A stretch of DNA of 64,000 nucleotides from Escherichia phage anhysbys. The stretch lies in the sequence record NC_052656.1; one strand, written 5' to 3'. The notes beneath the pieces are model-generated. The model worked only from the letters and a program-made list of their open reading frames with translations, had not been told where the DNA came from and searched no databases. Within the stretch, counting starts at the first letter, position 1. Each line of letters starts with the position of its first letter. The position numbers were made by a program, and so were the translations under genes. Positions 1-46,853 of this stretch are shown here, in pieces.

Positions 1-194
1 AGTATGATGGCAAGTTTCCGTGGGAGAAAGATGTTTGTGCCTGTGATTCAGCAGCACATGCCAAAGCAGCGGGTCAGGCAGTAGTTGACATGTATAACAA
101 CACCCCCTTTGATCCAGAAATGGCAGGTGTTACAATGAGCATGTTCACTTACTATTCTTTTGAGGTTTACTATCACGAAGGAGAGTGGAAATGA
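1..194 (+). CDS. hypothetical protein (5'-truncated at window edge)
   Basis: Frame open from position 3 to TGA at 192-194; stop overlaps next start (ATGA). Confidence 0.4.
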   Translation, partial: YDGKFPWEKDVCACDSAAHAKAAGQAVVDMYNNTPFDPEMAGVTMSMFTYYSFEVYYHEGEWK

Positions 195-511
195 GCGAAG
201 AGCTATTAACATTTTACCGCACGTATTTGGCATGGTTGGAAGCTGGTGCTCCTGAAGGTGAACCGTTCACCCGTTGCACAGGTTTGTGCACGAACCTCTA
301 TGATTTTTACGACATAGGAGAAAGCGAACGATACGAACCTGTACTGGATGAAATGCATGAGCAGTTCTACCTCAAAGGTTTGGTTATGGTGTTGCCTTTC
401 AACAGTAATTTTGGAAAGTACACCTTAGAAGCGGAAAAAGGCCGTTGTCATTTGAATGTGGATCGTGTGAACTGGGTAAAAGAACGTGTAGCAGAAGAAA
501 TAATTGGTTGA
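191..511 (+). CDS. hypothetical protein, paralog family 1 (C-terminal D-R-V-x-W-V-K-E-R-V motif)
   Basis: ORF track 185..511; ATG at 191 follows AGGAG; C-terminus aligns with ORFs at 3029 and 4334. Confidence 0.55.
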   Translation: MSEELLTFYRTYLAWLEAGAPEGEPFTRCTGLCTNLYDFYDIGESERYEPVLDEMHEQFYLKGLVMVLPFNSNFGKYTLEAEKGRCHLNVDRVNWVKERVAEEIIG

Positions 512-565
512 CAGAAGGATCTGTCTTTGTCATAATCGTCTCATCGAAACAGAGAGGAGAAAATC

Positions 566-979
566 ATGAAAAAGTTTATTTGCACCCGTTCCACTAACAG
601 TGATATCCTTGTAGGTAAAGTTATCAAAGGAGAACTCTTCCATGCAAACGGTAAGAAATATATTCTGCTGAAAGATTCTTTCAACGGGGAATATCCGCGC
701 TGCACTTTCTTCAATTACAATACTCCATTTGCTTTAGAAGGAGATGCTTGGGACTGGGCTGAACTTCATCCTTGTTGTGAGGAAGAAGAATCTATGTTCT
801 TAGGTTTAAACGTTTACCGTGTAGATTACACCATGTGCGGAGCGGAATATTCTGTTCGCGTAGAAGCCGAATCCAAACTACAAGCACCTTTCAAGGCGGG
901 ATTGACTTTGGGTCATTGTTTGGCAAACATTGAAGATGTTGTGATCCAAAGAGTTGTTTTAGAGAAAGAGGCTATTTGA
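566..979 (+). CDS. hypothetical protein
   Basis: 137-aa ORF, RBS gagaggagaaaatc upstream of ATG. Confidence 0.5.
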   Translation: MKKFICTRSTNSDILVGKVIKGELFHANGKKYILLKDSFNGEYPRCTFFNYNTPFALEGDAWDWAELHPCCEEEESMFLGLNVYRVDYTMCGAEYSVRVEAESKLQAPFKAGLTLGHCLANIEDVVIQRVVLEKEAI

Positions 980-1031
980 CAGAAGACGGTACAATATTTA
1001 AAATATAAAGATTAACCACAAAGGAGAGAAT

Positions 1032-1331
1032 ATGCAAGTTGAAGACCTGATCCACATTCTGAATAAAGCTAAAGAGAAGGGTGCTATCAAAGACTGGAAA
1101 CGTGAAACAAGTGAAGATTTATCTCATTGTTGCCGAGAATTTTACATCGAAGGTATTGCTGACGATCATTATACTATTGAATGGTATATCAACTTAATGA
1201 CTCTTAAGCACGGTTCATTTGAGGTTTGGTTTGATGATATTGATGTAAATGGTTTCCATCCTGGCTATAAAATCGCTATGCAGTTATCTTATCGTAGAGA
1301 AGTTGTAGCACATTTGGGTTTACATAACTAA
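1032..1331 (+). CDS. hypothetical protein
   Basis: 99-aa ORF preceded by aaaggagag RBS. Confidence 0.5.
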   Translation: MQVEDLIHILNKAKEKGAIKDWKRETSEDLSHCCREFYIEGIADDHYTIEWYINLMTLKHGSFEVWFDDIDVNGFHPGYKIAMQLSYRREVVAHLGLHN

Positions 1332-1341
1332 GGAGAAAAGA

Positions 1342-1665
1342 ATGCAAGCAGTTGTTAACGAAGCTATTATGAACTTATCCTTCTTGTTAGCTGGTTTAGG
1401 AGGTGTTCTCATAGGTTTGGCTCTTATCTGGTGTATTCGTCGATTAATCGGGTACCGACAAAAAGGTGTTTCATGTTTTGTATCTTACAATTTTACAACT
1501 GCTTACAGCAATGAGGTTGGATCTGGCAATGCTCAAGCATTTTTACCAACATATCCTCCTACGGTGGAAGATATTCGAAACTTGGAAGTAGAACTTATGG
1601 GACTAGGTGATAACTATACATCTCTAGTTATTCAAAATATTTTTCGACTAAAACAGGGGGCGTGA
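1342..1665 (+). CDS. hypothetical membrane protein
   Basis: 107-aa ORF; hydrophobic N-terminal segment LSFLLAGLGGVLIGLALIWCI. Confidence 0.45.
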   Translation: MQAVVNEAIMNLSFLLAGLGGVLIGLALIWCIRRLIGYRQKGVSCFVSYNFTTAYSNEVGSGNAQAFLPTYPPTVEDIRNLEVELMGLGDNYTSLVIQNIFRLKQGA

Positions 1666-1878
1666 ATGAAGGTATATTACCCTCATCCGTTTGATCCTAA
1701 AAACAAAGCCGTAATTCTTCGTCAGTGGCAACGGGTTTGTCGTACTAAATGTCCAATCAATAGCCCACACAATGTAGACAAGGACTATCTTGGGACATTT
1801 GTTGAATACACTTACATAGACAAAAACAAGCGTAAACAACATGTCGAGGAATACTGCTTAAGAGTAGAATGGCTGTAA
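1666..1878 (+). CDS. hypothetical protein
   Basis: 70-aa ORF, start overlaps previous stop. Confidence 0.4.
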   Translation: MKVYYPHPFDPKNKAVILRQWQRVCRTKCPINSPHNVDKDYLGTFVEYTYIDKNKRKQHVEEYCLRVEWL

Positions 1879-1890
1879 ATAATAAATACC

Positions 1891-1919
1891 TTGACAAGTG
1901 TTTATTCATTTTGTAAAGT
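1891..1919 (+). promoter_or_regulatory. sigma70-like promoter (TTGACA-17-TGnTAAAGT)
   Basis: TTGACA at 1891-1896, 17-nt spacer, TG-extended -10 TAAAGT at 1914-1919, upstream of recombinase gene. Confidence 0.4.
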
Positions 1920-1948
1920 GAGAATACAGCAATGGTTTAGGAGTGGTT

Positions 1949-2620
1949 ATGAAAAAGTTTGTTGTTTACAGTCGTCTTTCTAAACAGAAAAAAGGCGAGG
2001 CACAATATGGTATGGAGAGCCAAGAGAACGATATCCGTTACTTCTTAGACTCTGTGCCTGATGCGGAAGTTATTGGTCAATTTTCTGAATACTATTCGGG
2101 TAAGGGCGATTGGAAGCAACGTAAGGAACTGGTTAAAGCGGTTGAAATGTGTAAAGCTACCGGAGCAACTTTATTGGTAGCTAAAGTTGACCGCTTGGGT
2201 CGTAACAACGCCTCCGTAGCAACTCTTCTAGAAATGATTGATGTTAAGATAGCCATTATGCCAGATGCAGATAAAATGGTTATACAGCTTCTGTCTGTTC
2301 TGGCTGAACAAGAGGTTAGAGGTATTGCTGATCGTATTAAAAAGGGTCTTGCTGTAGCAAAAAGCAAAGGTGTTTTATTAGGCAGTGCTAATCCTAAAAC
2401 TGCCGCTGCACGTAGAAAAGGAAAAATGGAATACAACTCTGTTAAAGCAGACGCTTTTGCAGAGACATTTCGTGAACGTTTGGAGATCCTGAGAGATTTA
2501 AATACACCTTACAAAACTATTGCTGAAAAATTCAATAGTAAGAAAATAGCAACAGCACGTGGTGGTAAATGGGATGCTAAGACTGTTTCTCGTTTGTGTG
2601 CCAGACTGAACATTAAATAG
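1949..2620 (+). CDS. serine recombinase (resolvase/invertase family)
   Basis: N-terminal VVYSRLSKQ (catalytic Ser region), LLVAKVDRLGRN resolvase core motif, C-terminal HTH-like segment; RBS aggag before ATG 1949. Confidence 0.7.
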   Translation: MKKFVVYSRLSKQKKGEAQYGMESQENDIRYFLDSVPDAEVIGQFSEYYSGKGDWKQRKELVKAVEMCKATGATLLVAKVDRLGRNNASVATLLEMIDVKIAIMPDADKMVIQLLSVLAEQEVRGIADRIKKGLAVAKSKGVLLGSANPKTAAARRKGKMEYNSVKADAFAETFRERLEILRDLNTPYKTIAEKFNSKKIATARGGKWDAKTVSRLCARLNIK

Positions 2621-2628
2621 GAGAGGAT

Positions 2629-3051
2629 ATGAAACAAGAAAATGAATCTGTAGATCACTTAATCATGCTGTCAGCCCTTTTTGCAGGATGGGACGTATTT
2701 TTTGAAAATTTGTTCAATTCTGCTACAGATGGTTCCGATTTTATGCGCCAATTTAAACGACGAACTGTTGAGGACTATACCTTCTATTCAGGTCTGATTG
2801 AAAAAGGTTACGAAGATACAAATACAACACTCACCATTAAAGTTTTAGATGTGATGTTTAGTGTTATAGATGCTATCGACGAAAGTCTTCCGATCCTAGA
2901 CAATTGTAATACGAAAGCCTATGTTTACAAAATAGCTCGTGCTTATGTGTCTGCAAACAGTTGTCTTCTTTCCACCCAGATTGCCGTGAACAATCTTGCC
3001 AACTTGTTTGATGAAGGAGAAACTTTTTATGACAATCGATTTGAAGTGTAA
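2629..3051 (+). CDS. hypothetical protein
   Basis: 140-aa ORF with aggagaggat RBS. Confidence 0.45.
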   Translation: MKQENESVDHLIMLSALFAGWDVFFENLFNSATDGSDFMRQFKRRTVEDYTFYSGLIEKGYEDTNTTLTIKVLDVMFSVIDAIDESLPILDNCNTKAYVYKIARAYVSANSCLLSTQIAVNNLANLFDEGETFYDNRFEV

Positions 3052-3394
3052 GAGGATTCTTTTAGATTTCTATAATAATTGGTTAGAACACCTCCGTCTC
3101 TTTCCAAGAGAAAGTGGTTACGCTGATGTTGGCTTATGCCGAGGTCTGCGTATGTATATAAGCGATGAATTTCGGGCAGAGCATTCTTTAGCATATTCTG
3201 TTTATGGTATGCAATTAGCCAGTTTTGAAAACGCTGGCTTAGATACAACTTTCCCATTTAACACAGCAAAATCTTTTGAGCAAGAGTGTAAGGAAAAACG
3301 TTGTATGTTTAATGAAAAACGTGTACAGTGGGTTAAGGATCGAGTTAAACAACTGGAACAAGAGTTGGATTTCTTTTATGACGAGGCAGAATAA
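3029..3394 (+). CDS. hypothetical protein, paralog family 1
   Basis: ATG 3029 after gaaggag; shares FY..WLE / GLC / KRVQWVKDRV motifs with ORFs at 191 and 4334. Confidence 0.5.
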   Translation: MTIDLKCKRILLDFYNNWLEHLRLFPRESGYADVGLCRGLRMYISDEFRAEHSLAYSVYGMQLASFENAGLDTTFPFNTAKSFEQECKEKRCMFNEKRVQWVKDRVKQLEQELDFFYDEAE

Positions 3395-3666
3395 TGGATA
3401 GACAAACCTTAAAAACAATGGCAGATGCTACTAATTCTCCGTACTTTGAAAAAGTAAGTAAATTGGTAGCTCAAGCCGCAGAGGAAGGATATTATAACAT
3501 AAACATCCACAACCCAAGTCTTATACTAGAAATGCCAAGTGATAAAAAGATACAAGAGAGTATCTGTGAAGGTATTGTTAGTTACTGGCGCGAGCGTGGG
3601 TGTGGTGCAAACATGGCTTTAGACAGTGCAAACATTGTAAGATATATAAATATTTCTTGGGGGTGA
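3394..3666 (+). CDS. hypothetical protein
   Basis: 90-aa ORF. Confidence 0.45.
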   Translation: MDRQTLKTMADATNSPYFEKVSKLVAQAAEEGYYNINIHNPSLILEMPSDKKIQESICEGIVSYWRERGCGANMALDSANIVRYINISWG

Positions 3667-3670
3667 TTTT

Positions 3671-4282
3671 ATGATTCAATGCACTCATATCCAAATTACT
3701 TGGAGAGATGAACTTTACCATTTGGGACAATTTACTGTAGGGGAAACATACCCTATCATTAAACATAATCCTAACATCGCAAACTTTGACAGGATGGTTC
3801 TTGTTGAGGACGATCTAGGTCAAACTTATTCTTTAGATCTAAAATATCCGTTTTCTTACGGCTACGATTGGATCGTTACTTTTGAAGACGCGGAGGAAAA
3901 TAAAACAATGAACGAAAAAAATTCTTGGTATTATCGTTGCGAACTGCCGCCAGTAGGTGAAAAGGTTATCTTTGTTCCCGATTTGGAAAGATATTCTTGG
4001 GATAGTTCTTATTCTGTTCCTAAAGAAGGCACCGAAGTTGAAGTTATTGCACATCGCACAACTTCGCATGGTAACGACGTAGCAGTTGTTTTCTGGGATG
4101 ATGAAGGTGCTGCTTGTGCAGGTGGCTTTGTTGCAGGTAATTTTGAACCCCTGCCAGATCCTCTGAAGGAGGCAATTTTAGGCGTAGCTTCTTTTGGACT
4201 CTCTTACACGTCTGCACAAGAGATTGTAGAAGGTATTTTAAACGGTACCGTTCCAAACGAAATTTTCAAACAGATTAAATAA
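3671..4282 (+). CDS. hypothetical protein
   Basis: 203-aa ORF. Confidence 0.5.
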   Translation: MIQCTHIQITWRDELYHLGQFTVGETYPIIKHNPNIANFDRMVLVEDDLGQTYSLDLKYPFSYGYDWIVTFEDAEENKTMNEKNSWYYRCELPPVGEKVIFVPDLERYSWDSSYSVPKEGTEVEVIAHRTTSHGNDVAVVFWDDEGAACAGGFVAGNFEPLPDPLKEAILGVASFGLSYTSAQEIVEGILNGTVPNEIFKQIK

Positions 4283-4287
4283 CAGTT

Positions 4288-4313
4288 GCACCCCGTTCTT
4301 CGGGGTGTTATTG
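4288..4313 (+). terminator. intrinsic terminator-like hairpin
   Basis: GCACCCCG-ttctt-CGGGGTG stem-loop followed by T-rich tract. Confidence 0.45.
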
Positions 4314-4333
4314 TATACGTAAAGGAGGAGATA

Positions 4334-4672
4334 ATGTATTACACTGAAGACTACATACTGTATAACTTTTTTAAAGGCTGGTTGGAATGGGCGGAAAAAG
4401 CTCCTGTTGGAGATTGTGTTTTTCCTTGGGACTCTCGTCAAGGTTTGTGTCGTTGTTTGGAAGACTGGCTTATAACCACAAGCTACAACTCAGAAACTAA
4501 GAAATCTACATCACAAAGGTTAAAAATTTTATTTGAAGAAGATGGTTTAGATCCAATTTATCCTTTCGGTGAGGAAAGTTTCCACAATGGTCTTTTCCTT
4601 GGCACTCAACATTATGATAAAGATCGTGTAGATTGGGTAAAAGAAAAGGTAGCACAGTATGAATGGGGTTAA
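4334..4672 (+). CDS. hypothetical protein, paralog family 1
   Basis: ATG 4334 after aaggagg; C-terminal DKDRVDWVKEKV motif shared with ORFs at 191 and 3029. Confidence 0.5.
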   Translation: MYYTEDYILYNFFKGWLEWAEKAPVGDCVFPWDSRQGLCRCLEDWLITTSYNSETKKSTSQRLKILFEEDGLDPIYPFGEESFHNGLFLGTQHYDKDRVDWVKEKVAQYEWG

Positions 4673-4862
4673 GAATTATCACCGCTGGTTACAAAGCTAT
4701 CTTAAGAAATGTGAACTTGGTGTTCCAGGTTATACTTACGACACAGACGAGATCCTTGATGAAATGGAAGTTTGGTTTAAAGAACCTCGTGAGCTATTGG
4801 CAAATATTCTAATGGCTTGGGATGGTACGGCACAAAGCATCGAAGGGGGTAGAAATGAGTAA
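4659..4862 (+). CDS. hypothetical protein
   Basis: 67-aa ORF. Confidence 0.4.
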   Translation: MNGVKNYHRWLQSYLKKCELGVPGYTYDTDEILDEMEVWFKEPRELLANILMAWDGTAQSIEGGRNE

Positions 4863-5006
4863 GAAATTGTTTAATATTCGTGAGAATCGTGATGGATCGT
4901 TCTCTGTAGTCAATGAATTTAACGTTTCGGTTGGGACTTTTATTACTAAACGTCAAGCAGAACAAGTAAGAGATACTTTAAACAAGTAAATTTTTAAGGG
5001 GGACTT

Positions 5007-5426
5007 ATGTTAGGTAAGATCAAAGCTTTTTTCAAACGTATTGTTGAAGGAAGTCCAACAGAAGGTGCATTAGGAAGATCTCTAACAGGAGAACCACTTG
5101 CCATAATTTCTATCAGTCGGCATGGCGGATATTCCATTCGACAAACACCTTTAGGTATAAAAGGTAGTATGCTTTCTTGGACAATATCTCAAGTTGGTGA
5201 TAACAGACTTGCAGCTATAGCATTGCTTCGTGGGGAGTATGACTATTGTTTATCAGCATCTTGTAAAAAGCACCTCATAGAGCACATTAGAGACAGAGTA
5301 GAAAGAGAAGGCGGATACTTCTTCGAAACTAAGAGAAACGAACAAGGAACTCTTGACTTCACTAAGGTTTACTGGGACAATCATACTCGTCAAACTGTTG
5401 AACAACTTCTGGAGGAAAGATGTTAA
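5007..5426 (+). CDS. hypothetical protein
   Basis: 139-aa ORF with aagggggac RBS. Confidence 0.45.
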   Translation: MLGKIKAFFKRIVEGSPTEGALGRSLTGEPLAIISISRHGGYSIRQTPLGIKGSMLSWTISQVGDNRLAAIALLRGEYDYCLSASCKKHLIEHIRDRVEREGGYFFETKRNEQGTLDFTKVYWDNHTRQTVEQLLEERC

Positions 5427-5629
5427 AAGCTTTTGCTGTATACTCTACTGTAGGATTCTTTTATTGGATTATAGTTATTGTCGGATGTTGGTTAGGTTCT
5501 TGTGTTGTGATGGGAGAATGGTTAACATACAACGTATTTGAATGGGATGTAGTTTGTAGATCATTACTTGTTATATGGACTGCTATTGTTTGTTGGACAA
5601 CTGTTAGTCTAACATTGGATCTATACTGA
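5420..5629 (+). CDS. hypothetical membrane protein
   Basis: 69-aa ORF, two hydrophobic segments. Confidence 0.4.
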   Translation: MLKAFAVYSTVGFFYWIIVIVGCWLGSCVVMGEWLTYNVFEWDVVCRSLLVIWTAIVCWTTVSLTLDLY

Positions 5630-5638
5630 TTAATAGAT

Positions 5639-5667
5639 GGTAGATAGATGATCATAGTTTATCTACC
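5639..5667. repeat. inverted repeat GGTAGATA / TATCTACC (8-bp arms, 13-nt spacer)
   Basis: Perfect 8-bp inverted repeat directly after the stop of the 5420..5629 ORF. Confidence 0.6.
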
Positions 5668-5797
5668 TTCACTTACGTTTCATACCTCACTATCGTGAGT
5701 AACATGAAACATTATTATATAGAAATCTACTACTCGCTATCGCTCGTAAACATATGTTTAGGGTACCATATTTTTTTGAAAAAGTCAATGCTGATTC

Positions 5798-5867
5798 ACC
5801 TATCAATTATCTGTTTAAGATAAGTCTTACCTATCAATCTAACTCTTAACTAGTATTGCACCTATAG
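5798..5867. repeat. three phased direct repeats ACCTAT(C/A) at about 31-bp spacing
   Basis: ACCTATCA at 5798 and 5829, ACCTATAG at 5860, inside a 360-bp non-coding AT-rich region. Confidence 0.5.
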
Positions 5868-5922
5868 TAAGATTATTCCTATGGTTATTAACCCTCTTCT
5901 TCTATAGAATGTAATTAGATCC

Positions 5923-5952
5923 TTGACAAACTCACAAAACTTGTGTTACATT
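5923..5952 (+). promoter_or_regulatory. sigma70-like promoter
   Basis: TTGACA at 5923-5928, 17/18-nt spacer, TTACAT/TACATT -10, about 40 nt before the ORF at 5990. Confidence 0.45.
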
Positions 5953-5989
5953 GTGTCTCACAGGTGAATAATACCGAACAGGAGGAAGA

Positions 5990-6205
5990 ATGAGTTCCAA
6001 TTTTCTATACAAAGCAAAAGATTCACGAGATGGAGAGAAACATTGGTGGTTGATCACAGGAGATGGTGTTATCATCCTACCGTGGGACGGAGAGACAAAA
6101 GTTCAAATACTGGAGAAAGTAAAAGGTGTTAGTTTTAATGTTAGTCATGACATAACAACTTTCAAAGCTTTTGCAATGAATCCCAGTCTTGTTGCTGAAT
6201 GGTAA
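5990..6205 (+). CDS. hypothetical protein
   Basis: 71-aa ORF with aggagg RBS. Confidence 0.5.
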   Translation: MSSNFLYKAKDSRDGEKHWWLITGDGVIILPWDGETKVQILEKVKGVSFNVSHDITTFKAFAMNPSLVAEW

Positions 6206-6437
6206 TCCAGGAGAAAATATGACTAAAATGTATGCAGCCGTTGATAAGCTGGATGGGTCTGATTCTGTTTTTATTTTGAATAAAATGGGTGTCTTAGTTT
6301 ATGCCCGAACTTCTCAAAACATAGAGCACCAAGTGGAAGCAGCACAAATTTTAGAGCAAATAACCCCTCCATACCTATACTCAAATGTTGAGCGTTTTAA
6401 CGATGCACTTGGTTTGACGTTAATAGCGGAATGGTAA
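6189..6437 (+). CDS. hypothetical protein
   Basis: 82-aa ORF. Confidence 0.45.
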   Translation: MLLNGNPGENMTKMYAAVDKLDGSDSVFILNKMGVLVYARTSQNIEHQVEAAQILEQITPPYLYSNVERFNDALGLTLIAEW

Positions 6438-6637
6438 TAATGGCGAAAATGTTGAAAATTGATAATGTCGTAACAATCACTACGTCTATACCTTGTCCTC
6501 CTATGCCTTGCCCCTATTGTGGTGGTGCAGGATATGTTATGGCGGATGTAGGTCAAATTTACGAGTGTAACCCGTGCAAAACCACAGGTTATATCCAAAT
6601 AGAATCAGAGGAGAAACACTATGAGCCAAAACGCTAA
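6431..6637 (+). CDS. hypothetical zinc-ribbon protein
   Basis: CPYCGG ... CNPCKTTG cysteine pairs. Confidence 0.4.
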   Translation: MVIMAKMLKIDNVVTITTSIPCPPMPCPYCGGAGYVMADVGQIYECNPCKTTGYIQIESEEKHYEPKR

Positions 6638-7070
6638 AGAAAAAGAAGTAATCACGGTAATCCGTCAGATGGAAGGTGCCGAAAACAATGCTTTTGTTAC
6701 TAAGATTCTTCTTAATATCTTTGAAGATGTTATTTTAAACAACCCTGGTCATAAAGATTATCAGTATGATGTTATGATGGGTGCTTTACTTGAGATTAAC
6801 AAAAACACTTTTGCTGAATATGAGCAACACATGCTTTTACCAGAGGAAGATCAGGATTATTTGTTATCTGGTGCTTTAAGTGCACAAGAAAATTTCTACC
6901 ACGTTCTTAATATGGCTTATGCAGATGAACTTGCTGTTTCCCTTGAAGAGCGGATTCAAATGGTTCGTGACGTAATGAATGAACAAATCCAAGAAGTTGA
7001 AGACTTGGTAGCAGAACCTTTAGCAGAAATTCGTGCAGCTATTGAAAAACAAAAAGGAACTCAATCATGA
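6621..7070 (+). CDS. hypothetical protein
   Basis: 149-aa ORF. Confidence 0.5.
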   Translation: MSQNAKEKEVITVIRQMEGAENNAFVTKILLNIFEDVILNNPGHKDYQYDVMMGALLEINKNTFAEYEQHMLLPEEDQDYLLSGALSAQENFYHVLNMAYADELAVSLEERIQMVRDVMNEQIQEVEDLVAEPLAEIRAAIEKQKGTQS

Positions 7071-7234
7071 TGCAAGTAGGTGATGTGGTTTGTCTTAAAG
7101 GTGCAAACAAACAAATGACAGTAATAGAAAGTTATGGTGAATCTTGTAAAGTAACTTGGTTCGATGAAAACGGGGAATTGCAACACGCCATATTCGATCA
7201 AAAAGCTTTGAGGAAGGTTGAAGAAAAAGAATGA
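7067..7234 (+). CDS. hypothetical small protein (55 aa)
   Basis: ATG 7067 to TGA 7232-7234, below the ORF-track size cutoff; fills the gap between flanking genes. Confidence 0.35.
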   Translation: MMQVGDVVCLKGANKQMTVIESYGESCKVTWFDENGELQHAIFDQKALRKVEEKE

Positions 7235-7494
7235 GCCATCCGTCAATATTTTTCTGTTTTGTAGATCTTGAAAACGAGTCTTTAATCGTTGATAGTGAGG
7301 GTTACTTCACTTATTGGGAATCCGAGCACGAAACTATAAGTGTAGTGAAAGAAATTATGCAAACCAATCCAAGCCTACCAGCGCATAAGTACGGTATTGC
7401 AAAAGTGTTTGTTACTAAAACAGAGTACACAAAAGAGCGAAGCACTTTGTACCATAATATTGAAGTGATTCACTATTTCAAAGATGTTATTTAG
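7231..7494 (+). CDS. hypothetical protein
   Basis: 87-aa ORF. Confidence 0.45.
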   Translation: MSHPSIFFCFVDLENESLIVDSEGYFTYWESEHETISVVKEIMQTNPSLPAHKYGIAKVFVTKTEYTKERSTLYHNIEVIHYFKDVI

Positions 7495-7502
7495 GAGGTT
7501 AT

Positions 7503-8111
7503 ATGGAAGAGAAGATTTGGGATGGTAAAGATCCTTTAGAAGTTGGACACGTAGCGCGTGTCAAAAAATCTACTACAGGTCCTGGTTTTTCTGGTTTGTA
7601 TCATATACCAGAAGAAGGTCAGCACGTTACAATTTTGGCTCGTGACAAACAAAACGGAGCAACGCCTGTGTGGATTGTTCGTTGGTATGACAAAGATCTT
7701 AACATTTGCTTGTCACCTATTATGGCTCATTTGCTGGAAGCCCCTTGCTCTGAAGAAGCTCTAATTTTTGTTTCGGCTTTTCAGAAAGCCACAGGTTTAA
7801 CATTAGATGCAAAAGATGTGCAAAAAGCATTTGACATTATTCAGGAAGACAACGATACTACATCTAACGACGAACTGGTTGAAGTTACAATCTTATCTTC
7901 AGCAGATATCCGAGAGATTGATAATTGTGATTTTCCAATCACATTTAAAATGTCGCAGAAAGACATGCAGTCATCTGGAAGTTGTTTTGGTATACCTCGT
8001 TGGTTTTTTGATTCTATCAAAAATTCTACTACAGAGGGATCAGACTATGATCAAGATGACGTGCTTTGGTTCTTAAAAAACCGAGAGATTGTTCTCTCAC
8101 CACTTAAATAA
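7503..8111 (+). CDS. hypothetical protein
   Basis: 202-aa ORF with aggagg RBS. Confidence 0.5.
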   Translation: MEEKIWDGKDPLEVGHVARVKKSTTGPGFSGLYHIPEEGQHVTILARDKQNGATPVWIVRWYDKDLNICLSPIMAHLLEAPCSEEALIFVSAFQKATGLTLDAKDVQKAFDIIQEDNDTTSNDELVEVTILSSADIREIDNCDFPITFKMSQKDMQSSGSCFGIPRWFFDSIKNSTTEGSDYDQDDVLWFLKNREIVLSPLK

Positions 8112-8231
8112 GGAGAAATAATGGTTTCATTTATCGTAGGTGTAGTTGTAGGCTATCTTATTAACAAATATCAAGACGTTATCACGGCAAAAGTAAAAGA
8201 CATTTTAGACTCATCTAAATAATCTATCAAA

Positions 8232-8259
8232 GCTGCATCTTCAATAGGTGCAGCCTTTT
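8232..8259 (+). terminator. intrinsic terminator
   Basis: GCTGCA ... TGCAGC stem-loop followed by CTTTT. Confidence 0.45.
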
Positions 8260-8274
8260 AAAAGGAGATATGGC

Positions 8275-8448
8275 ATGACTAAACGCACTGATTTTAAATG
8301 TATGCATTGTGGGAAATCTTTTGGGGATCATCAAGCTCGCACATTCAACTGTCCACGTAAAGGTCGCGGAAATTTTAAAGGTTTTAATCCCGCACATGTT
8401 TATTCTCCAGATTACGATAAGCCAGAAGAAGAAAAATTTGTTATTTAA
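8275..8448 (+). CDS. hypothetical Cys-rich small protein
   Basis: ATG 8275 after aaaggag; CMHCG ... FNCPRKG. Confidence 0.45.
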   Translation: MTKRTDFKCMHCGKSFGDHQARTFNCPRKGRGNFKGFNPAHVYSPDYDKPEEEKFVI

Positions 8449-8460
8449 TAAGGAGGTCAT

Positions 8461-8742
8461 ATGGAACTCGTTCAAGAATTGTATAATGCTTTAGGAGCAA
8501 AAGGAAAAGATTGGCCCGAACATGCGCTTATTGCTATAAGAGACTCCGATGGTGAGATTAAGTTTTCAAGCGTAAGTAAAGAGCACATCGTAGAAACAAA
8601 ACTGGGTATTTACATGCGTGGAACTTATTGCTTATTCAACACCAGAATGGTAGAAGCCCCTGTTATCGAGGATGGAACAAAAGATTGCCCCACAATCGTA
8701 ACAAAATCTGAATATGAGAAGTTTTTCTACGCTAAGGCTTGA
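8461..8742 (+). CDS. hypothetical protein
   Basis: 93-aa ORF with aaggagg RBS. Confidence 0.5.
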   Translation: MELVQELYNALGAKGKDWPEHALIAIRDSDGEIKFSSVSKEHIVETKLGIYMRGTYCLFNTRMVEAPVIEDGTKDCPTIVTKSEYEKFFYAKA

Positions 8743-8787
8743 CACAGAAACAATACTATAGGATAGTGATCCTATCGTAGCAATAGA

Positions 8788-8808
8788 ACCCGCTTCGGCG
8801 GGTTTTTT
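8788..8808 (+). terminator. intrinsic terminator (UUCG tetraloop)
   Basis: ACCCGC-TTCG-GCGGGT followed by TTTTTT. Confidence 0.7.
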
Positions 8809-8833
8809 CATATCTGTAGCAATAGGAGGTCGT

Positions 8834-9064
8834 GTGTTAAATAAAATCGAAGAAGGTTGTATGGCATTTTTGGTAGATAACCCGTTTCCCTTTATGGTTA
8901 AGGTCCATGTAGGAGAGTATTTAGGTTATGACGAATGGGATTGTAGTATCAATAGTGAAATGCACCACTACCAACCAACAATACTTAAGACGGATCAAAT
9001 GGCGCGTATTACAGTAGAGGATGAATTGATCATTGAGTTATACGAGAGAGCACTACACAAGTAA
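8834..9064 (+). CDS. hypothetical protein
   Basis: 76-aa ORF, GTG start after aggagg. Confidence 0.45.
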   Translation: MLNKIEEGCMAFLVDNPFPFMVKVHVGEYLGYDEWDCSINSEMHHYQPTILKTDQMARITVEDELIIELYERALHK

Positions 9065-9105: not shown

Positions 9106-9135
9106 AAAAGGCACCCACTTGGGTGCCTTTGTTTT
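9106..9135. terminator. bidirectional intrinsic terminator at the convergence of plus and minus blocks
   Basis: AGGCACCC-ACTT-GGGTGCCT hairpin flanked by A-run upstream and T-run downstream. Confidence 0.65.
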
Positions 9136-12130: not shown

Positions 12131-12536
12131 TACCCCTCCATTCAAGACAAGCCATAACTTTACGCCAATCACTTTCTGTAAGAAAAATCTCGTTTGCTTT
12201 CTTCCACAAATCTAAATCGTGAAGGGTTGGAATACGATATGTTAGTTCACAGAATCTATGCTCTTCTTCTGTAATATAACCAAAATGCAGAGCCACATCG
12301 TGAAACCAACACCAACCATGCATCTCTCGAACAACATGGTCATGTTGAGACATTATTTTATGCCGTAAACCTAACCAACAAGGAACAGATACTTTAGTAG
12401 TCTTTAATCTGTGATCAACAGTATTAGAGTATTCAATAATAGCTGTCAGTTTCAATCGTGCTTTTTCTAAATCCTCATGCGTCACTTTGAAATAACTTTC
12501 TGAAAGATATCCACACATATTAATAACCTCCTTCAA
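12123..12536 (-). CDS. hypothetical protein
   Basis: 137-aa ORF. Confidence 0.45.
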   Translation of the reverse strand: MKEVINMCGYLSESYFKVTHEDLEKARLKLTAIIEYSNTVDHRLKTTKVSVPCWLGLRHKIMSQHDHVVREMHGWCWFHDVALHFGYITEEEHRFCELTYRIPTLHDLDLWKKANEIFLTESDWRKVMACLEWRGNE

Positions 12537-13461
12537 AAGGCTTTACTACATGTTGATTAGCTTTAAAACGTTCAACATAGTCGTTTTCGCCCATGTTTTC
12601 ATATAGCTTAATAACAACATAAAAGTTTTCCCAAGCATATTCCCTAAACCAACCACTAGTGATGGATGTGCAGACTTTAGATAAAGCCATTATAAAACTT
12701 TGCTTAGGGGTTGGACCTCCGATCTCTCCACCGAAAGGAATTTGTGAACGTTCCAAAGCCAAAACACACGCTTCTTCATAAACACCTAACAGGCGCACAT
12801 GTTTTGGTTGAGCAAAAAACTTTTCTTTGCTGGTCATAACTTCACTTCCATCTTTCATATAAGATTTATATGCTGGGGCATCCATTACCGCGATTGCTTC
12901 ATGGATAGAATCATGATCATAAACATACGGAACCTCATCACCTTTAAAAAAGTCTTTACTTTTTACGTTTAAGTTCGGATGAGAGTAAGTGTATGTTTCT
13001 TTCTCACGCAACTCATAAATACTCTTAAGATTTTCTGGGATCTTTGCGCCAAGTGACCGCATGAAATGAATATCTTTCATAGTTTTAAAGAAGTGAGGAC
13101 TATCCTTTTTAAAACGATGACTCATTTTAAGAAGGTAGAGCACATCTAAAGGAGCAACAACATGTCCAGCATAAGTTCGACGAACATCATCAGAATCTTC
13201 ACAATAACTAATCAAAGCTTCTGTGCTATCTCCTTGAGAAGCAATATCGTATTCCAAATGTGCACCAGCTATCATTTTGACATGGCCTTTGTTCCCTTTA
13301 CGTTCTACAAGTTCAACAAACTCATCTTGAGAGAACATTTTTGATAATTCTTCCCACTCTTGTTCTGTACACAGGTAATCTAAATCTACACAAGGGCGAT
13401 ACAAGTCTTTTCCCATGTCCATAGCATGAATTTGTAATGCACGGCTACCAATTAACACCAT
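12520..13461 (-). CDS. hypothetical protein (313 aa)
   Basis: Long ORF; N-terminal GS...DLD pattern is only weakly nucleotidyltransferase-like. Confidence 0.5.
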   Translation of the reverse strand: MVLIGSRALQIHAMDMGKDLYRPCVDLDYLCTEQEWEELSKMFSQDEFVELVERKGNKGHVKMIAGAHLEYDIASQGDSTEALISYCEDSDDVRRTYAGHVVAPLDVLYLLKMSHRFKKDSPHFFKTMKDIHFMRSLGAKIPENLKSIYELREKETYTYSHPNLNVKSKDFFKGDEVPYVYDHDSIHEAIAVMDAPAYKSYMKDGSEVMTSKEKFFAQPKHVRLLGVYEEACVLALERSQIPFGGEIGGPTPKQSFIMALSKVCTSITSGWFREYAWENFYVVIKLYENMGENDYVERFKANQHVVKPFEGGY

Positions 13462-13519
13462 AATATTTCTCCTCTATTGGTTGATAGGTTAAGTTTATCA
13501 AGCTTCCAGATTCCTGTCA

Positions 13520-43305: not shown

Positions 43306-43536
43306 TCTAGCCTCCTAAACGCGTCTCTGACGCACTTTTTATATATAAGATGATAAATCACCTTACCTAGTAAGTAAACTTGCTCTACGAGCCTCTTATG
43401 AAGCTTGTGTTATAGGCTATACTATTGCTACCTGTTTAAGCAAGGTTTTTGCGCACAGAAAATAATTTTTAATAAAACTCTTGACTTTTGTGTTCGAAGT
43501 ATGCTACCCTAGAAATCTATTAACGAGCGCAGCGAG

Positions 43537-43562
43537 TTAAGGTTTTAAGGTTTTAAGGTTGT
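43537..43562. repeat. tandem repeat, about 3 copies of AAGGTTTT
   Basis: ttaaggttttaaggttttaaggtt read directly. Confidence 0.8.
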
Positions 43563-43569
43563 TGATGTA

Positions 43570-43601
43570 GTACTCTGTACTCAAGTACTGTACTCCGTAC
43601 T
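43570..43601. repeat. cluster of five GTACT pentamers
   Basis: GTACT at 43570, 43577, 43585, 43590 and 43597. Confidence 0.7.
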
Positions 43602-43604
43602 AGA

Positions 43605-43618
43605 TTAATAATTATTAA
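43605..43618. repeat. perfect 14-bp palindrome TTAATAATTATTAA
   Basis: Read directly; sits in an AT-only tract. Confidence 0.7.
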
Positions 43619-43735
43619 ATATTAATAATAAATAATTATTAGATCTAACAAACAGGTATAGTGTATCAGAACTGGTACGTACAGATCAACTTCTATCAAT
43701 TAAAAATAAAATAATAAATTATTATAAATAATACT

Positions 43736-43749
43736 TGATCTATAGATCA
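43736..43749. repeat. perfect 14-bp palindrome TGATCTATAGATCA
   Basis: Read directly, about 45 bp upstream of the first plus-strand late-block ORF. Confidence 0.7.
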
Positions 43750-43795
43750 GTATGAAGTACAGTACGGAACATCTTAACAAGAATGGAGGTGTGCA

Positions 43796-43981
43796 ATGAT
43801 TAGTGAGAATCCGTGCAAATGGCATCATGTGCCTATTAAAGATTGTATGTCTTGTAATCCACGTTCTATTTATAACATTGCATCTTATGATGACGACAAT
43901 GTGTTAGACGATGATGAAGGCTGGGAGGATTTAGATTGGACTGGTTATGAAACCAAAAAGGATAAAATTATTCCTAGTTGA
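43796..43981 (+). CDS. hypothetical Cys-rich small protein
   Basis: 61-aa ORF with ggagg RBS. Confidence 0.45.
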   Translation: MISENPCKWHHVPIKDCMSCNPRSIYNIASYDDDNVLDDDEGWEDLDWTGYETKKDKIIPS

Positions 43982-44018
43982 CTTAAGATATCCTTCGTGC
44001 TAAACTAGAAGTGAGGAG

Positions 44019-44270
44019 ATGCCGATCACTCCCCATTTGGGGTTCGAAGGATATATGCAAAATAGCTTTTATTTTAGGTGCCGTGCTTGTAATAGGCATT
44101 TGACAAACCACTCCAGACGTGATAAAAATGGAGTCATCAAGGAATCAGACCTCTGTTCTATTTGCACAGGTTTGGCTTTTGATGATAGTCCCGAAAGGGT
44201 TTATCAGCATCAATGTATAACAGACGTTCTCGTGTCAAACTTGGTAGAGGACGAACAACTAACAGATTAG
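44019..44270 (+). CDS. hypothetical Cys-rich protein
   Basis: 83 aa; CRACNRH ... CSICTG. Confidence 0.45.
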   Translation: MPITPHLGFEGYMQNSFYFRCRACNRHLTNHSRRDKNGVIKESDLCSICTGLAFDDSPERVYQHQCITDVLVSNLVEDEQLTD

Positions 44271-44278
44271 GAGGAACA

Positions 44279-44527
44279 ATGTCTCTATTAGAAAAACACG
44301 TGTTTGAAGATGGTAACGGCAACGCAGTTTTTCTTTTCCATCCAGAAAAATACACATCTGAAAACAATGGTACAACTTCTATTGTAATCACTAAAGATGT
44401 TAAAGTTATTGATTTCTTGGCTCTGATGCGAGAGATGGATCTTGAAATTAATACTTTTAACGCAGAAGCTTTGGTTGTTGCTCTTCTGGAAAAGAAAGAT
44501 AGTGAAGAAGTAGCAGAATATGCTTAA
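44279..44527 (+). CDS. hypothetical protein
   Basis: Start moved to ATG 44279 after aggagg. Confidence 0.45.
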   Translation: MSLLEKHVFEDGNGNAVFLFHPEKYTSENNGTTSIVITKDVKVIDFLALMREMDLEINTFNAEALVVALLEKKDSEEVAEYA

Positions 44528-44534
44528 ATAACTA

Positions 44535-44564
44535 TTGACAAACGTATCCTTCATATGTTAGGAT
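44535..44564 (+). promoter_or_regulatory. sigma70-like promoter (CTATTGACAA family)
   Basis: TTGACA at 44535-44540, about 18-nt spacer, TAGGAT. Confidence 0.4.
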
Positions 44565-44773
44565 ACGTTCATCAAGTGTGGTAACAGGGTCGTTGACTTT
44601 TGTTAAGAGGGGCTTGCACTGCGGTAGTGTTAGAGACTACTTCTTCAGAGGTTAGCTACCAAAGAGGAAAAGGAATAGTCTCGGCTCAAGAACTTTTACG
44701 CTGAAAGTTGGGCTTGGTCTTAGAGAATGTAGCGGTTCTCTACAATCGTCAGCGTCTCTGTTACCACATTTAT

Positions 44774-44848
44774 GGCCCTGTAGCTCAATGGGAGAGCTGT
44801 CGGCTCATAACCGATAGGTAGCTGGATCGAAACCAGCCAGGGCCACCA
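44774..44848 (+). tRNA. tRNA-Met (anticodon CAT)
   Basis: Manual cloverleaf: acceptor GGCCCTG/CAGGGCC, loop CTCATAA, T-arm GCTGG-ATCGAAA-CCAGC, encoded CCA. Confidence 0.8.
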
Positions 44849-44850
44849 AC

Positions 44851-44925
44851 GTCTTTATGGTGTAATGGATAGCACAGGAGTCTTCTAAACTCTTAGTCAA
44901 GGTTCGATTCCTTGTAAAGACACCA
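44851..44925 (+). tRNA. tRNA-Arg (anticodon TCT)
   Basis: Acceptor GTCTTTA/TAAAGAC, loop CTTCTAA, T-loop TTCGATT, encoded CCA. Confidence 0.8.
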
Positions 44926-45120
44926 GAACATTTTAACATGAATTAGCTCAAGTGATTTGAACCCACTACTGATCATGGTGGCAGAGAATGAGGCAAGTAT
45001 GTCAGACATTATAAACAAAGGCCACGGTTATATTAGAAGACATAAATGCTCGAAGAGCACCGTTCGTTGAGAACGGGGGTTGGTGGAGTCACCATTCATG
45101 GTAAAATGTTTTAAAAACTA

Positions 45121-45150
45121 TTGACAACTAACATTATTTTATGTTAGATT
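45121..45150 (+). promoter_or_regulatory. sigma70-like promoter (CTATTGACAA family)
   Basis: TTGACA at 45121-45126, 18-nt spacer, TAGATT. Confidence 0.4.
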
Positions 45151-45158
45151 ATAAGTAT

Positions 45159-45249
45159 GGAAGGGCAAATCGACGTGGCGACGAAAACGGTCTTGAAAAC
45201 CGCCGAGCTTGAAAGAGCCTTGGGAGTTCGACTCTCCCTCCTTCCGCCA
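45159..45249 (+). tRNA. tRNA-Ser (anticodon TGA), class II
   Basis: Acceptor GGAAGGG/TCCTTCC, loop CTTGAAA, long variable arm, T-arm GGGAG-TTCGACT-CTCCC, encoded CCA. Confidence 0.75.
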
Positions 45250-45254
45250 GATTA

Positions 45255-45340
45255 GGTAGATTGGTGAAATGGTAGCCACAACAGTTTGCTAAACTGTAGT
45301 CGGAAACGGCGTGTAGGTTCGAGTCCTACATCTACCGCCA
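45255..45340 (+). tRNA. tRNA-Ser (anticodon GCT), class II
   Basis: Acceptor GGTAGAT/ATCTACC, stem ACAGT/ACTGT with loop TTGCTAA, long variable arm, encoded CCA. Confidence 0.8.
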
Positions 45341-45470
45341 AGTTCTTTTTAATATAGCTTACTTTAATAGAGTAAACTTTCGGCAGATGGCCTCCACCAT
45401 CTTACCGATAACTCATAGTTAGTGGTGTGAACACTGGCTATTTTAAAAAGAATTTAAATATTAGTATTTA

Positions 45471-45558
45471 GGTGAGTTAATTCCGTAGGGGTAGCGGGGC
45501 AGACTGTAAATCTGTTATCATTGCGATTCGGGTGGTTCGACTCCATCACTCACCACCA
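45471..45558 (+). tRNA. tRNA-Tyr (anticodon GTA), class II
   Basis: Acceptor GGTGAGT/ACTCACC, loop CTGTAAA, long variable arm, T-arm GGTGG-TTCGACT-CCATC, encoded CCA. Confidence 0.75.
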
Positions 45559-45564
45559 AATTAA

Positions 45565-45650
45565 GATGAGTTGGCTGAATGGTTTAAGCGGCGGACTGTT
45601 AATCCGTGTTCGAAAGAACGATATAGGTTCAAATCCTATACTCATCGCCA
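45565..45650 (+). tRNA. class II tRNA with anticodon GTT (Asn-decoding by anticodon, isotype uncertain)
   Basis: Acceptor GATGAGT/ACTCATC, stem GCGGA/TCCGT with loop CTGTTAA, variable-arm hairpin GTTC-GAAA-GAAC, T-arm ATAGG-TTCAAAT-CCTAT, encoded CCA. Confidence 0.6.
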
Positions 45651-45657
45651 GAATTAT

Positions 45658-45734
45658 GGACTTGTAGAGTTAAGGTAAACCCCCAGTCGCCAAGAGGCTT
45701 CTGGAATTGCAGGTATCGAATCCTGCCGAGTCCC
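45658..45734 (+). tRNA. tRNA-like element with non-canonical anticodon arm (possible pseudo-tRNA)
   Basis: 7-bp acceptor GGACTTG/CGAGTCC and T-stem GCAGG/CCTGC with 8-nt loop TATCGAAT, but no standard 5-bp/7-nt anticodon stem-loop; no CCA. Confidence 0.3.
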
Positions 45735-45740
45735 AGCTTT

Positions 45741-45815
45741 GCTCCTATAGTATAATGGCTATTACAACGGTTTTGTAATCCGTGGATCTCTGTTCGATTC
45801 AGAGTGGGAGCACCA
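45741..45815 (+). tRNA. tRNA-Thr (anticodon TGT)
   Basis: Acceptor GCTCCTA/TGGGAGC, loop TTTGTAA, T-arm CTCTG-TTCGATT-CAGAG, encoded CCA. Confidence 0.75.
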
Positions 45816-46088
45816 ACACAACATTAAGGGCACTGTGATTGATCGTCGTATCCTGTGCACAAGGTCTGTTCGAAAGACAGTGTTCTTAGTATTGTGTTGA
45901 TCACACAAAGAGTCACCTGAAACTTGACCGGAGTAGGGTTGGATGGGGCAAAAGAAGAAGCGGCTCTCCCATCGACAGCAACGAAGAATAATATTTGACT
46001 TTGGTTTTGTATTATTTTAAGTTAGCTTACCGAACGTAGGGCTAGTCACCCAATGGGATACTCGTCACTGTCCCACTCAATAAAACTA

Positions 46089-46118
46089 TTGACAACCAAT
46101 AGTAAAATGTAGTATAGT
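46089..46118 (+). promoter_or_regulatory. sigma70-like promoter (CTATTGACAA family)
   Basis: TTGACA at 46089-46094, 18-nt spacer, TATAGT. Confidence 0.45.
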
Positions 46119-46129
46119 AAAGATGTAGG

Positions 46130-46203
46130 GCGTTCTTGGTGTAGCGGTAGCATTCCGTCCTTCCAAGTCGGCGGCACGAGTTCGATCCTCGTAGAACGCT
46201 CCA
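46130..46203 (+). tRNA. tRNA-Gly (anticodon TCC)
   Basis: Acceptor GCGTTCT/AGAACGC, loop CTTCCAA, T-arm ACGAG-TTCGATC-CTCGT, encoded CCA. Confidence 0.75.
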
Positions 46204-46301
46204 AATTATTTAATAAAGGGTTGCCAGAAAACTTTCTCTTTTACTCATGGTTTTCTCCTTCTCTCACACCTCTTCTGGTTGCCCTTCATTAAATGATTTA
46301 T

Positions 46302-46376
46302 TGGTTTGTAGTGTAGTCCGGTAGCACACGACACTTTGACTGTCGTAGGTTTGGTTCAAATCCAGACAGACCAGCC
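46302..46376 (+). tRNA. tRNA-Gln (anticodon TTG)
   Basis: U1-A72 acceptor TGGTTTG/CAGACCA with discriminator G, stem CGACA/TGTCG with loop CTTTGAC, encoded CCA. Confidence 0.8.
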
Positions 46377-46382
46377 ATATAA

Positions 46383-46459
46383 CGGAATTTAGCTCAGTTT
46401 GGTAGAGCATACGCTTTGGGAGCGTAGGGTCGCAGGTTCGAATCCTGCAATTCCGACCA
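46383..46459 (+). tRNA. tRNA-Pro (anticodon TGG)
   Basis: C1-G72 acceptor CGGAATT/AATTCCG, stem TACGC/GCGTA with loop TTTGGGA, T-loop TTCGAAT, encoded CCA. Confidence 0.8.
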
Positions 46460-46465
46460 ATCAAA

Positions 46466-46539
46466 TGTTTCGTAGTTCAATGGTAGAACCCACGACTGAT
46501 AATCGTGAGACACAAGTTCGATTCTTGTCGAAACAACCA
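46466..46539 (+). tRNA. tRNA-Ile (anticodon GAT)
   Basis: Acceptor TGTTTCG/CGAAACA, stem CACGA/TCGTG with loop CTGATAA, T-arm ACAAG-TTCGATT-CTTGT, encoded CCA. Confidence 0.75.
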
Positions 46540-46541
46540 GT

Positions 46542-46611
46542 TTCCCGTTAGACTTACAGGATAAGAGTTCCACAACTTATTGTGATGCTGGTTCGAATCC
46601 AGCACGGGATA
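46542..46611 (+). tRNA. tRNA-like element with non-canonical anticodon arm (possible pseudo-tRNA)
   Basis: Acceptor TTCCCGT/ACGGGAT (1-72 mismatch) and canonical T-arm GCTGG-TTCGAAT-CCAGC, but middle folds only as CACAA-CTTA-TTGTG; no CCA. Confidence 0.3.
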
Positions 46612-46617
46612 CATAAT

Positions 46618-46696: not shown

Positions 46697-46811
46697 AATA
46701 TCGCTTGCCAGCGGTATCTTTGAAGACCTTGCCTGGTTCCTTCTAAGATGGAGGGGTGCGACTCCTTAACGCACAATTATAATAAAGCATTTCAAATTAA
46801 CAGTATTTATT

Positions 46812-46835: not shown

Positions 46836-46853
46836 CTATCTATTGAATAAAAC

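Follow-up and report, generated by a model that had tools for sequence, protein, structure and literature searches.

A conserved regulatory module with a predicted leftward promoter and leader hairpin in an early-region gap of Escherichia phage anhysbys

Positions 5630-5989 of the 64,000-nucleotide stretch of Escherichia phage anhysbys analysed here (sequence record NC_052656.1; hereafter the window) form a gap between two open reading frames (ORFs) which, judged by comparison with related genomes, is a real and strongly conserved regulatory module. Our preferred interpretation, to which we assign a probability of about 0.55, is that of a back-to-back control region whose main product would be a non-coding RNA transcribed from the minus strand. 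The most conserved feature, a predicted minus-strand promoter together with a hairpin at 5730-5788, had been overlooked in the initial annotation, which was made from the sequence of the window alone. The description given there of a non-coding, AT-rich gap is borne out by the bounding ORFs (5420-5629, with stop codon TGA, and 5990-6205, both on the + strand) and by an AT content of 67.8% compared to 61.5% in the whole window.

Escherichia phage phAPEC8 matches the window region at 98.7% identity, and 63 other Phapecoctavirus records (Stephanstirmvirinae) do so at 95-99%. Conservation was quantified by counting variable columns across nine close phAPEC8-like relatives, which are the nine relatives referred to throughout. 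Only 1.2% of the columns vary in 5630-5790 (2 of 161), compared to 6.7% in the upstream ORF 5420-5629 and 6.2% in the ORF starting at 5990 (aligned over 5990-6200). The remainder of the gap is more variable, with 18.3% in 5791-5899 and 8.9% in 5900-5989. Members of the phiWec190 group match positions 5639-5845 at 82-84% DNA identity (83% in phiWec190), while their syntenic flanking proteins are just 44-56% identical, and in Justusliebigvirus (phi92 type) only the stretch 5696-5792 is recognisable, at 79% identity. By these measures of variation, constraint on 5630-5790 exceeds that on the flanking genes, which shows purifying selection.

The predicted leftward promoter occupies 5788-5760 on the minus strand and is of the sigma70 type with an extended -10 element. 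It consists of the -35 hexamer TTGACT (5788-5783, five of six consensus matches), a 17-nt spacer, TGG (5768-5766) and the -10 hexamer TACCCT (5765-5760), which places the predicted transcription start at ~5753. The nine relatives differ within the promoter at one column only, 5771, inside the spacer. Pattern scans of viral, metagenome and genome collections yielded a family of 41 distinct copies. All of them contain TT(G/T)AC(T/A), a spacer of 17-18 nt with variable sequence, TGn and TACCCTA (41/41; given in the reverse-complement sense to the + strand of the window), followed after 9-16 variable nucleotides by a short stem of the form GA-GC-[G-N-(N)-A]-GC-GA with its complementary arm; the conserved sequence inside this hairpin is hereafter the box. 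The third position of TGn differs among the copies (C, G or A), as do the spacer sequences. The -35 element was absent from the search patterns and yet is found at the right distance in all 41 copies; chance matches in GC-rich genomes lack it. The layout of the module is therefore that of a sigma70 promoter with extended -10 architecture, with predicted activity. Many other extended -10 promoters occur in this phage genome, and such promoters have likewise been remarked for rV5. In IMG/VR, scanning with an exact pattern for close relatives gave a single locus. Matches in the genome collection were mostly due to chance; the full promoter with the box was present in eight loci, namely four integrase-linked elements, three phage-like contigs and the locus L299. 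Two forward-strand readings of the conserved core were rejected. The + strand offers no acceptable -35/-10 pair for a promoter, and the T-run that a terminator would have after TAGGGTAGCAT is missing in several copies.

Across Stephanstirmvirinae the module is present in two or three copies per genome, and the window contains two of them. The second copy of the core is located at 43497-43537 within the divergent gap 43306-43795, on the strand opposite to the 5.7-kb copy. This paralogous module (43481-43535, + strand) reads TTGACT-18-TGC-TACCCT followed by UUAAC-GAGCGCAGCGA-GUUAA and lies 260 nt upstream of a conserved gene at 43796-43981. It belongs to the copies that we designate class D, in which the module precedes the conserved gene by 200-260 nt and a second promoter intervenes. 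Class B copies, including one upstream of phi92 gp208, lie closer, at 65-80 nt, to the start of a conserved gene that encodes a small membrane protein and has a Shine-Dalgarno (SD) sequence. Because class B and class D copies point at a gene, the module can be read in that orientation as a promoter with a leader. Class A copies, including the one at 5.7 kb, are directed against their flanking genes; their synteny is kept in Phapecoctavirus, the phiWec190 group, Klebsiella phages, Justusliebigvirus and several metagenome lineages. In 11 class A loci, the region past the promoter contains no minus-strand ORF that is conserved. As the module opposes the flanking genes and no conserved ORF follows it, a non-coding antisense RNA is its likely product.

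Class B loci were observed in other genera (L004, ~1251-1600; L025, L220, L215, L223 and L224), where the encoded protein starts with MDVMTMRF and is of the phi92 gp208 type. Their 5' untranslated region (5'UTR) carries a second conserved stem (CTATTCGTTCCTGAC...GGAAGGGACGGATAG). No class B copy was found in the Phapecoctavirus records.

The predicted leader hairpin of the 5.7-kb copy spans 5749-5730 on the minus strand (UAC-GA-GC-GAUA-GC-GA-GUA) and includes the conserved box CGAGCGATAGCGAG at 5733-5746. This hairpin with its G-N-(N)-A loop is positioned ~8-30 nt past the predicted start. Its core, GCG(N)(N)AGC, is invariant save at N, with the loops GAA, GCA, GTA, GATA, GAAA and GGGA among the copies; the core is GCGATAGC here and GCGAAGC, GCGCAGC, GCGTAGC, GCGAAAGC or GCGGGAGC in paralogs. 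The stem, counted as the four flanking pairs and the two GC pairs, covaries: in 29 distinct sequences 88.5% of the positions are paired compared to 76.8 +/- 2.0% after column shuffling. None of 500 shuffles attains 88.5%, although shuffle controls overstate significance somewhat because the sequences are mutually related. Slid controls gave at most 46%. The stem contains 19 G.U cells and not a single A.C cell, which indicates folding on the promoter-sense strand, either as RNA or as non-template DNA. In favour of an RNA hairpin are the wobble pairs and, in classes B and D, the location within a 5'UTR; in favour of a DNA hairpin is the core motif. The covariance models of Rfam 15 returned for positions 4500-7000 two chance-level snoRNA matches only. 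Another candidate hairpin, which spans the predicted start site (AAACATATGTTT and its equivalents), was given no weight, as its RNA form is nearly unstable (mean -0.5 kcal/mol compared to -0.1 kcal/mol in shuffles).

Further downstream on the minus strand lies a composite hairpin at 5677-5710, with an outer stem of GTTTCAT (5677-5683) and ATGAAAC (5704-5710) and an inner stem of CTCAC (5686-5690) and GTGAG (5695-5699). It is the counterpart of a UUUCAUG-loop-CAUGAAA hairpin in other class A copies and in the integrative elements described below. Compensatory variants are found in L017 and L376 (UUCCAUG/CAUGGAA) and in phiWec190 (AUUGC/GCAAU). We infer its assignment to the minus strand from its position downstream of the minus-strand promoter. 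The perfect 8-bp inverted repeat of the initial annotation is present as well, with the arms GGTAGATA at 5639-5646 and TATCTACC at 5660-5667. It forms a hairpin (5639-5667), located 10 nt past the upstream stop codon, that can be extended on the + strand to 11 pairs if G.U is included. Perfect inverted repeats of at least 8 bp occur in 16% of composition-preserving shuffles of the gap, so that the repeat alone is not significant. phiWec190 and PsgM04F retain it, with changes that yield G.U pairs only on the + strand. In the window and in phiWec190 this strand pairs better, through G.U pairs, so that the inverted repeat may be part of the upstream transcript, which runs rightward, at its 3' end. 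An intrinsic terminator was not detected at this position: the stem is AT-rich, its tails are TTCACTTACG (+) and ATCTATTAAT (-), and a terminator scan listed it on neither strand. Lacking a U-tract, the repeat is not a canonical terminator but a peripheral hairpin of the conserved block.

The opposite side of the gap is characterised by phased repeats and a rightward promoter. Three ACCTAT(C/A) repeats had been described at a spacing of about 31 bp, and they are indeed found at 5798, 5829 and 5860, with spacings of exactly 31 and 31 bp. The first two are copies of ACCTATCAAT (5798-5807 and 5829-5838) and the third is ACCTATAG (5860-5867); the first is centred at ~-50 from the predicted minus-strand start, and a fourth CCTAT is located at 5878-5882. 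A 10-nt direct repeat arises in 4% and a phased triple of a 6-mer in 0.15% of the gap shuffles, so that the repeats stand out alone and the inverted repeat does not. All three are invariant in the nine relatives, and the second is also kept in phiWec190. The 20 variable columns of 5791-5899 all lie outside the 28 repeat positions, which by our own arithmetic has a chance of ~0.002. In this comparison, the spacers vary and the repeats do not. A related motif, CC(G/T)AT(T/C)(A/G)AT, is located 10-11 nt beyond the -35 element in 12 of 12 class A loci examined. In most of the compact lineages a second, inverted copy of it follows and a third overlaps the RBS (ribosome-binding site) of the downstream gene, whereas the window and phiWec190 have direct copies at a spacing of 31 bp. 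Pairing of repeats 1 and 2 as an RNA stem was rejected, as the G/T position shows no covariation between inverted copies. The varying orientation and the lack of covariation at this position argue for protein sites rather than an RNA stem, and the repeats are probably binding sites for a DNA-binding regulator. No exact sites for integration host factor (IHF) are present; some resemblance to the nucleation motif of H-NS is possible.

A single copy of ACCTATCAAC was noticed at 13480-13489 on the minus strand, between an extended -10 promoter (start at 13520) and the RBS of a 313-amino-acid gene (12520-13461). The regulator of the phased repeats may have a further site here.

The sigma70-like promoter that had been reported to follow the repeats was recovered at 5923-5952 on the + strand. 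It reads TTGACA-18-TACATT with an upstream TG and matches the consensus at 10 of 12 positions; both hexamers are invariant in the nine relatives and the spacer is variable. It is predicted to drive the downstream early genes, the first of which starts with ATG at 5990 and has the RBS AGGAGG at 5980-5985.

Together, these features suggest the following mechanism. Host sigma70 RNA polymerase would initiate at ~5753 at the extended -10 promoter and transcribe leftward. The RNA would open with the short-stemmed G-N-(N)-A hairpin (5749-5730), continue via the composite hairpin (5710-5677) and the inverted-repeat region and then, carrying neither an ORF nor an intrinsic terminator, enter the 3' end of the upstream early gene in antisense orientation. 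There it would collide head-on with rightward early transcripts. The phased ACCTAT(C/A) motifs, at ~-50, -80 and -111 from the leftward start, lie between the two promoters, and a DNA-binding regulator occupying them could set the balance between leftward transcription and the rightward promoter at 5923-5952, which would serve the next early genes.

Several observations weigh against this interpretation. The -10 hexamer TACCCT keeps T1, A2 and T6 but matches only three of six consensus positions, and a simple promoter scan did not list it. As the patterns used to find the family members all fixed either TACCCTA or the box, the invariance of both is partly a search artefact. The core GCG(N)(N)AGC is more familiar as a stable mini-hairpin of DNA than from RNA, and the G.U pairs of the inverted repeat fall on the + strand and not on the minus strand. 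No minus-strand intrinsic terminator is predicted between 5750 and 1779, which would leave the RNA without a defined 3' end. None of the neighbouring proteins could be identified as a candidate regulator: they lack known domains, with neither a Pfam domain nor an annotated PHROG function, and no initiator gene is recognisable near the repeats either. Literature searches yielded neither a transcriptome nor mapped promoters for phages of this group, and no transcription-start or binding data for any of them.

With these features the gap falls among phage promoter-leader cassettes, cis-antisense RNAs and operator arrays. The OOP RNA of lambda is a short cis-antisense RNA that is transcribed from pO, overlaps the 3' end of cII and terminates at an intrinsic terminator. 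Like OOP, the predicted RNA would start between genes from a constitutive-type sigma70 promoter of its own, is aimed at the 3' end of an upstream early gene (ORF 5420-5629) and contains no conserved ORF. Unlike OOP, the module has no terminator and no sequence similarity to it, and the unit is repeated elsewhere in front of genes. The nut sites of lambda and P22 (boxA and a boxB hairpin) and the put sites of HK022 are promoter-proximal RNA signals for antitermination. The module resembles them in that a short, conserved hairpin, its loop of the type G-N-(N)-A, follows a few early promoters at a fixed short distance, with two or three sites per genome. It differs in the unrelated sequences of stem and loop and in that one copy has no downstream operon. 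No boxA (CGCTCTTTA-like) is present on the minus strand; an N-like protein did not turn up, although no search aimed at one was made. The OR region of lambda is a divergent promoter pair separated by operator repeats. Similarly, the gap has back-to-back sigma70 promoters ~135 bp apart with three or four conserved motif copies between them and drifting spacers; in contrast to OR, the motifs are direct and not palindromic, are 31 bp apart and lie upstream of the promoters without overlapping them, there is no recognisable repressor gene, and the phage is lytic.

Two further systems bear on the alternatives considered next. The PeSL (promoter-early stem-loop) cassettes of T4-like myoviruses are terminator-then-promoter units that are co-directional with genes and occur in many copies (PMC4122927, PMC2839356). 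The module shares with them the combination of early promoter and stem-loop that is repeated among small, variable early genes of a large lytic myovirus and whose neighbours are exchanged. Unlike in PeSLs, the promoter comes before the hairpin, the copies number just two or three, and the one at 5.7 kb is antisense. Mini-hairpins of the consensus GCGNAGC/GCGNNAGC are used in DNA at the primase origins of G4, St-1 and alpha3, at ssiA of RSF1010 and in the early promoters of N4, which are recognised by its virion RNA polymerase, and are much less stable as RNA than as DNA (PMC13037366). The box core is exactly this motif and varies only at N. These signals act in single-stranded DNA, whereas the motif of the module is found in double-stranded DNA, shortly after a sigma70-type promoter and as part of a longer stem containing G.U pairs. 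We know of no N4-like polymerase in this phage group.

The resemblance to mini-hairpin signals raises the alternative of a transcription-activated origin of replication, which we consider unlikely. The leftward promoter would open the DNA or form an R-loop, the displaced non-template strand would fold the mini-hairpin as a signal for priming or helicase loading, and the ACCTAT repeats would bind an initiator. The exact agreement of the core with primase-origin hairpins and their poor stability as RNA would fit such a function, as would the location of the fold on the non-template strand of the promoter and the presence of two or three copies per genome; moreover, tandem 8-mers and very AT-rich DNA come after the 43.5-kb paralog, which is located at the minimum of the cumulative GC skew. 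Yet the DnaA box TTWTNCACA has no match and only two sites with one mismatch, and the GC skew is constant from 1 to 8 kb and changes sign at ~9 kb and 43.5 kb, the points at which coding passes to the other strand; in this phage the skew tracks the direction of transcription. The motifs are 8-10 bp long at a spacing of 31 bp compared to 17-22 bp for iterons, the gap is just modestly AT-rich, class B copies resemble plain promoters with 5'UTRs of 65-80 nt, and stems rich in G.U suit RNA better than DNA. Of the earlier suggestion that the repeats form a regulator or initiator array, the regulator part is supported by the selection acting on them; the initiator or origin part is not, given the missing DnaA boxes, the flat skew and the short motifs. 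Quite unlikely, in our estimate, is a cassette that acts at the DNA level or through + strand read-through as a boundary or insulator and as a hotspot of gene exchange like a PeSL, with the leftward promoter as a by-product. The cassette is kept while its neighbours are swapped, with three extra genes after it in phiWec190 and a different family of upstream genes in other lineages, and PeSLs are composite terminator/promoter repeats that mediate such shuffling. The inverted-repeat hairpin favours the + strand, and compact lineages have no + strand promoter between the cassette and the next gene, so that + strand read-through must cross it. Recombination alone, however, explains neither a variability of 1.2% of the columns nor the G.U pattern on the minus strand, and a module with just two or three copies, of which the one at 5.7 kb is inverted relative to the genes, differs from PeSLs.

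That the gap is an ordinary spacer, with a weak terminator hairpin closing the upstream operon, a sigma70 promoter opening the next one, and with incidental repeats and an incidental backward promoter, appears improbable to us. The inverted repeat is common in shuffles, promoter-like matches in the region number 40 compared to 34 +/- 5 after shuffling, and ACCTATCAAT is not enriched elsewhere in the window. An ordinary spacer would nevertheless not be expected to be conserved above its flanking genes, nor to keep 79-84% identity in other genera while the flanks diverge; in the gap, moreover, the hairpin stem covaries, mutation spares the repeats, and their phasing is rare by chance. Finally, an ORF of 39 amino acids at 5704-5823 is annotated in the records of phAPEC8 (phAPEC8_0059), dw-ec and phi1_175008, but a small protein gene is hardly credible as the reason for the conservation. 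The reading frame stops at codon 3 in phiWec190, the ORF of equal length in the Klebsiella phage phi1_175008 encodes an unrelated peptide, an SD sequence is lacking, and conservation tracks the promoter and hairpin elements and not the codons. From this pattern, phAPEC8_0059 is probably a spurious ORF call. We thus retain the back-to-back control region with a leftward non-coding RNA as the preferred interpretation.

The promoter and box are also found outside the phages, in small integrative elements from Citrobacter sp. OP27, from a Scandinavium metagenome-assembled genome and from related contigs, where they come directly after a tyrosine integrase gene. The corresponding loci are L288 (Citrobacter sp. 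OP27, CP191518.1, ~3640-4150, minus strand), L286, L361, L376 and L178 (4712-5650). There, the leader is structured, longer than 400 nt and free of ORFs and includes the UUUCAUG/CAUGAAA hairpin. The elements further encode EndoVII-like, primase-like and helix-turn-helix regulator genes. The class A sequence of the window aligns with the element leader in two collinear blocks. No match to the leader was found in complete E. coli genomes, and the only matches to the elements in the phage collection were the modules of Klebsiella Stephanstirmvirinae. A search for Rfam families in the elements gave nothing relevant. These alignments suggest that satellite-like elements share a regulatory signal with Stephanstirmvirinae phages, of which they may be satellites. 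It may be speculated, although we regard this as rather doubtful, that the module is a nut-like or factor-dependent early promoter specific to Stephanstirmvirinae which elements of Enterobacteriaceae have copied in order to sense infection. The antisense class A RNA of the phage would then be homologous to the element leader and regulatory in a conflict between phage and satellite, comparable to the RNA-based immunity of P4.

The window as a whole is organised in three blocks. Genes at 185-9064 are small, lie on the + strand and have no assigned function; those at 9134-43305 are on the minus strand, and from 43796 small genes, ten tRNAs and larger genes follow on the + strand. Where the + and minus blocks converge, a perfect bidirectional terminator-like hairpin (AAAGGCACCC...GGGTGCCTTT) is located at 9107-9130, coinciding with the maximum of the cumulative GC skew. 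The divergent gap 43306-43795 (490 bp) contains, after the module, three copies of TTAAGGTT at 43537-43560 and then GTACT-rich repeats, AT-rich 17-mers at 43604-43641, a second promoter and the window's minimum of the cumulative GC skew. As a candidate origin or master control region, this gap ranks above 5630-5989. The ten tRNA genes form a cluster interspersed with several TTGAC-N-TGTTAnnnT extended -10 promoters (44774-46696 and 43978-46854). Among the sequence records, MN850601 (inny), OK272470 (JLBYU50) and NC_052659 (nieznany) begin inside a class A cassette or the class D gap, which is probably an arbitrary choice of start. MG065650 (Campylobacter phage B15), OP562383 (Acinetobacter phage ABPW7) and OR584014 (Pseudomonas phage PsgM04F) are near-identical or closely related Phapecoctavirus sequences; their labels name hosts far from E. 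coli and look doubtful.

How phAPEC8, phi92 and rV5-type phages control their transcription has hardly been studied, although several of these phages are candidates for phage therapy. Our analysis reduces the question to a small set of defined elements, namely two or three paralogous modules per genome and an operator-like motif, which are conserved beyond their surrounding genes. If transcribed as predicted, the module would provide an entry to the early regulatory circuit of the subfamily. Through the integrase-linked elements it may also expose an unrecognised relationship between phages and satellites.

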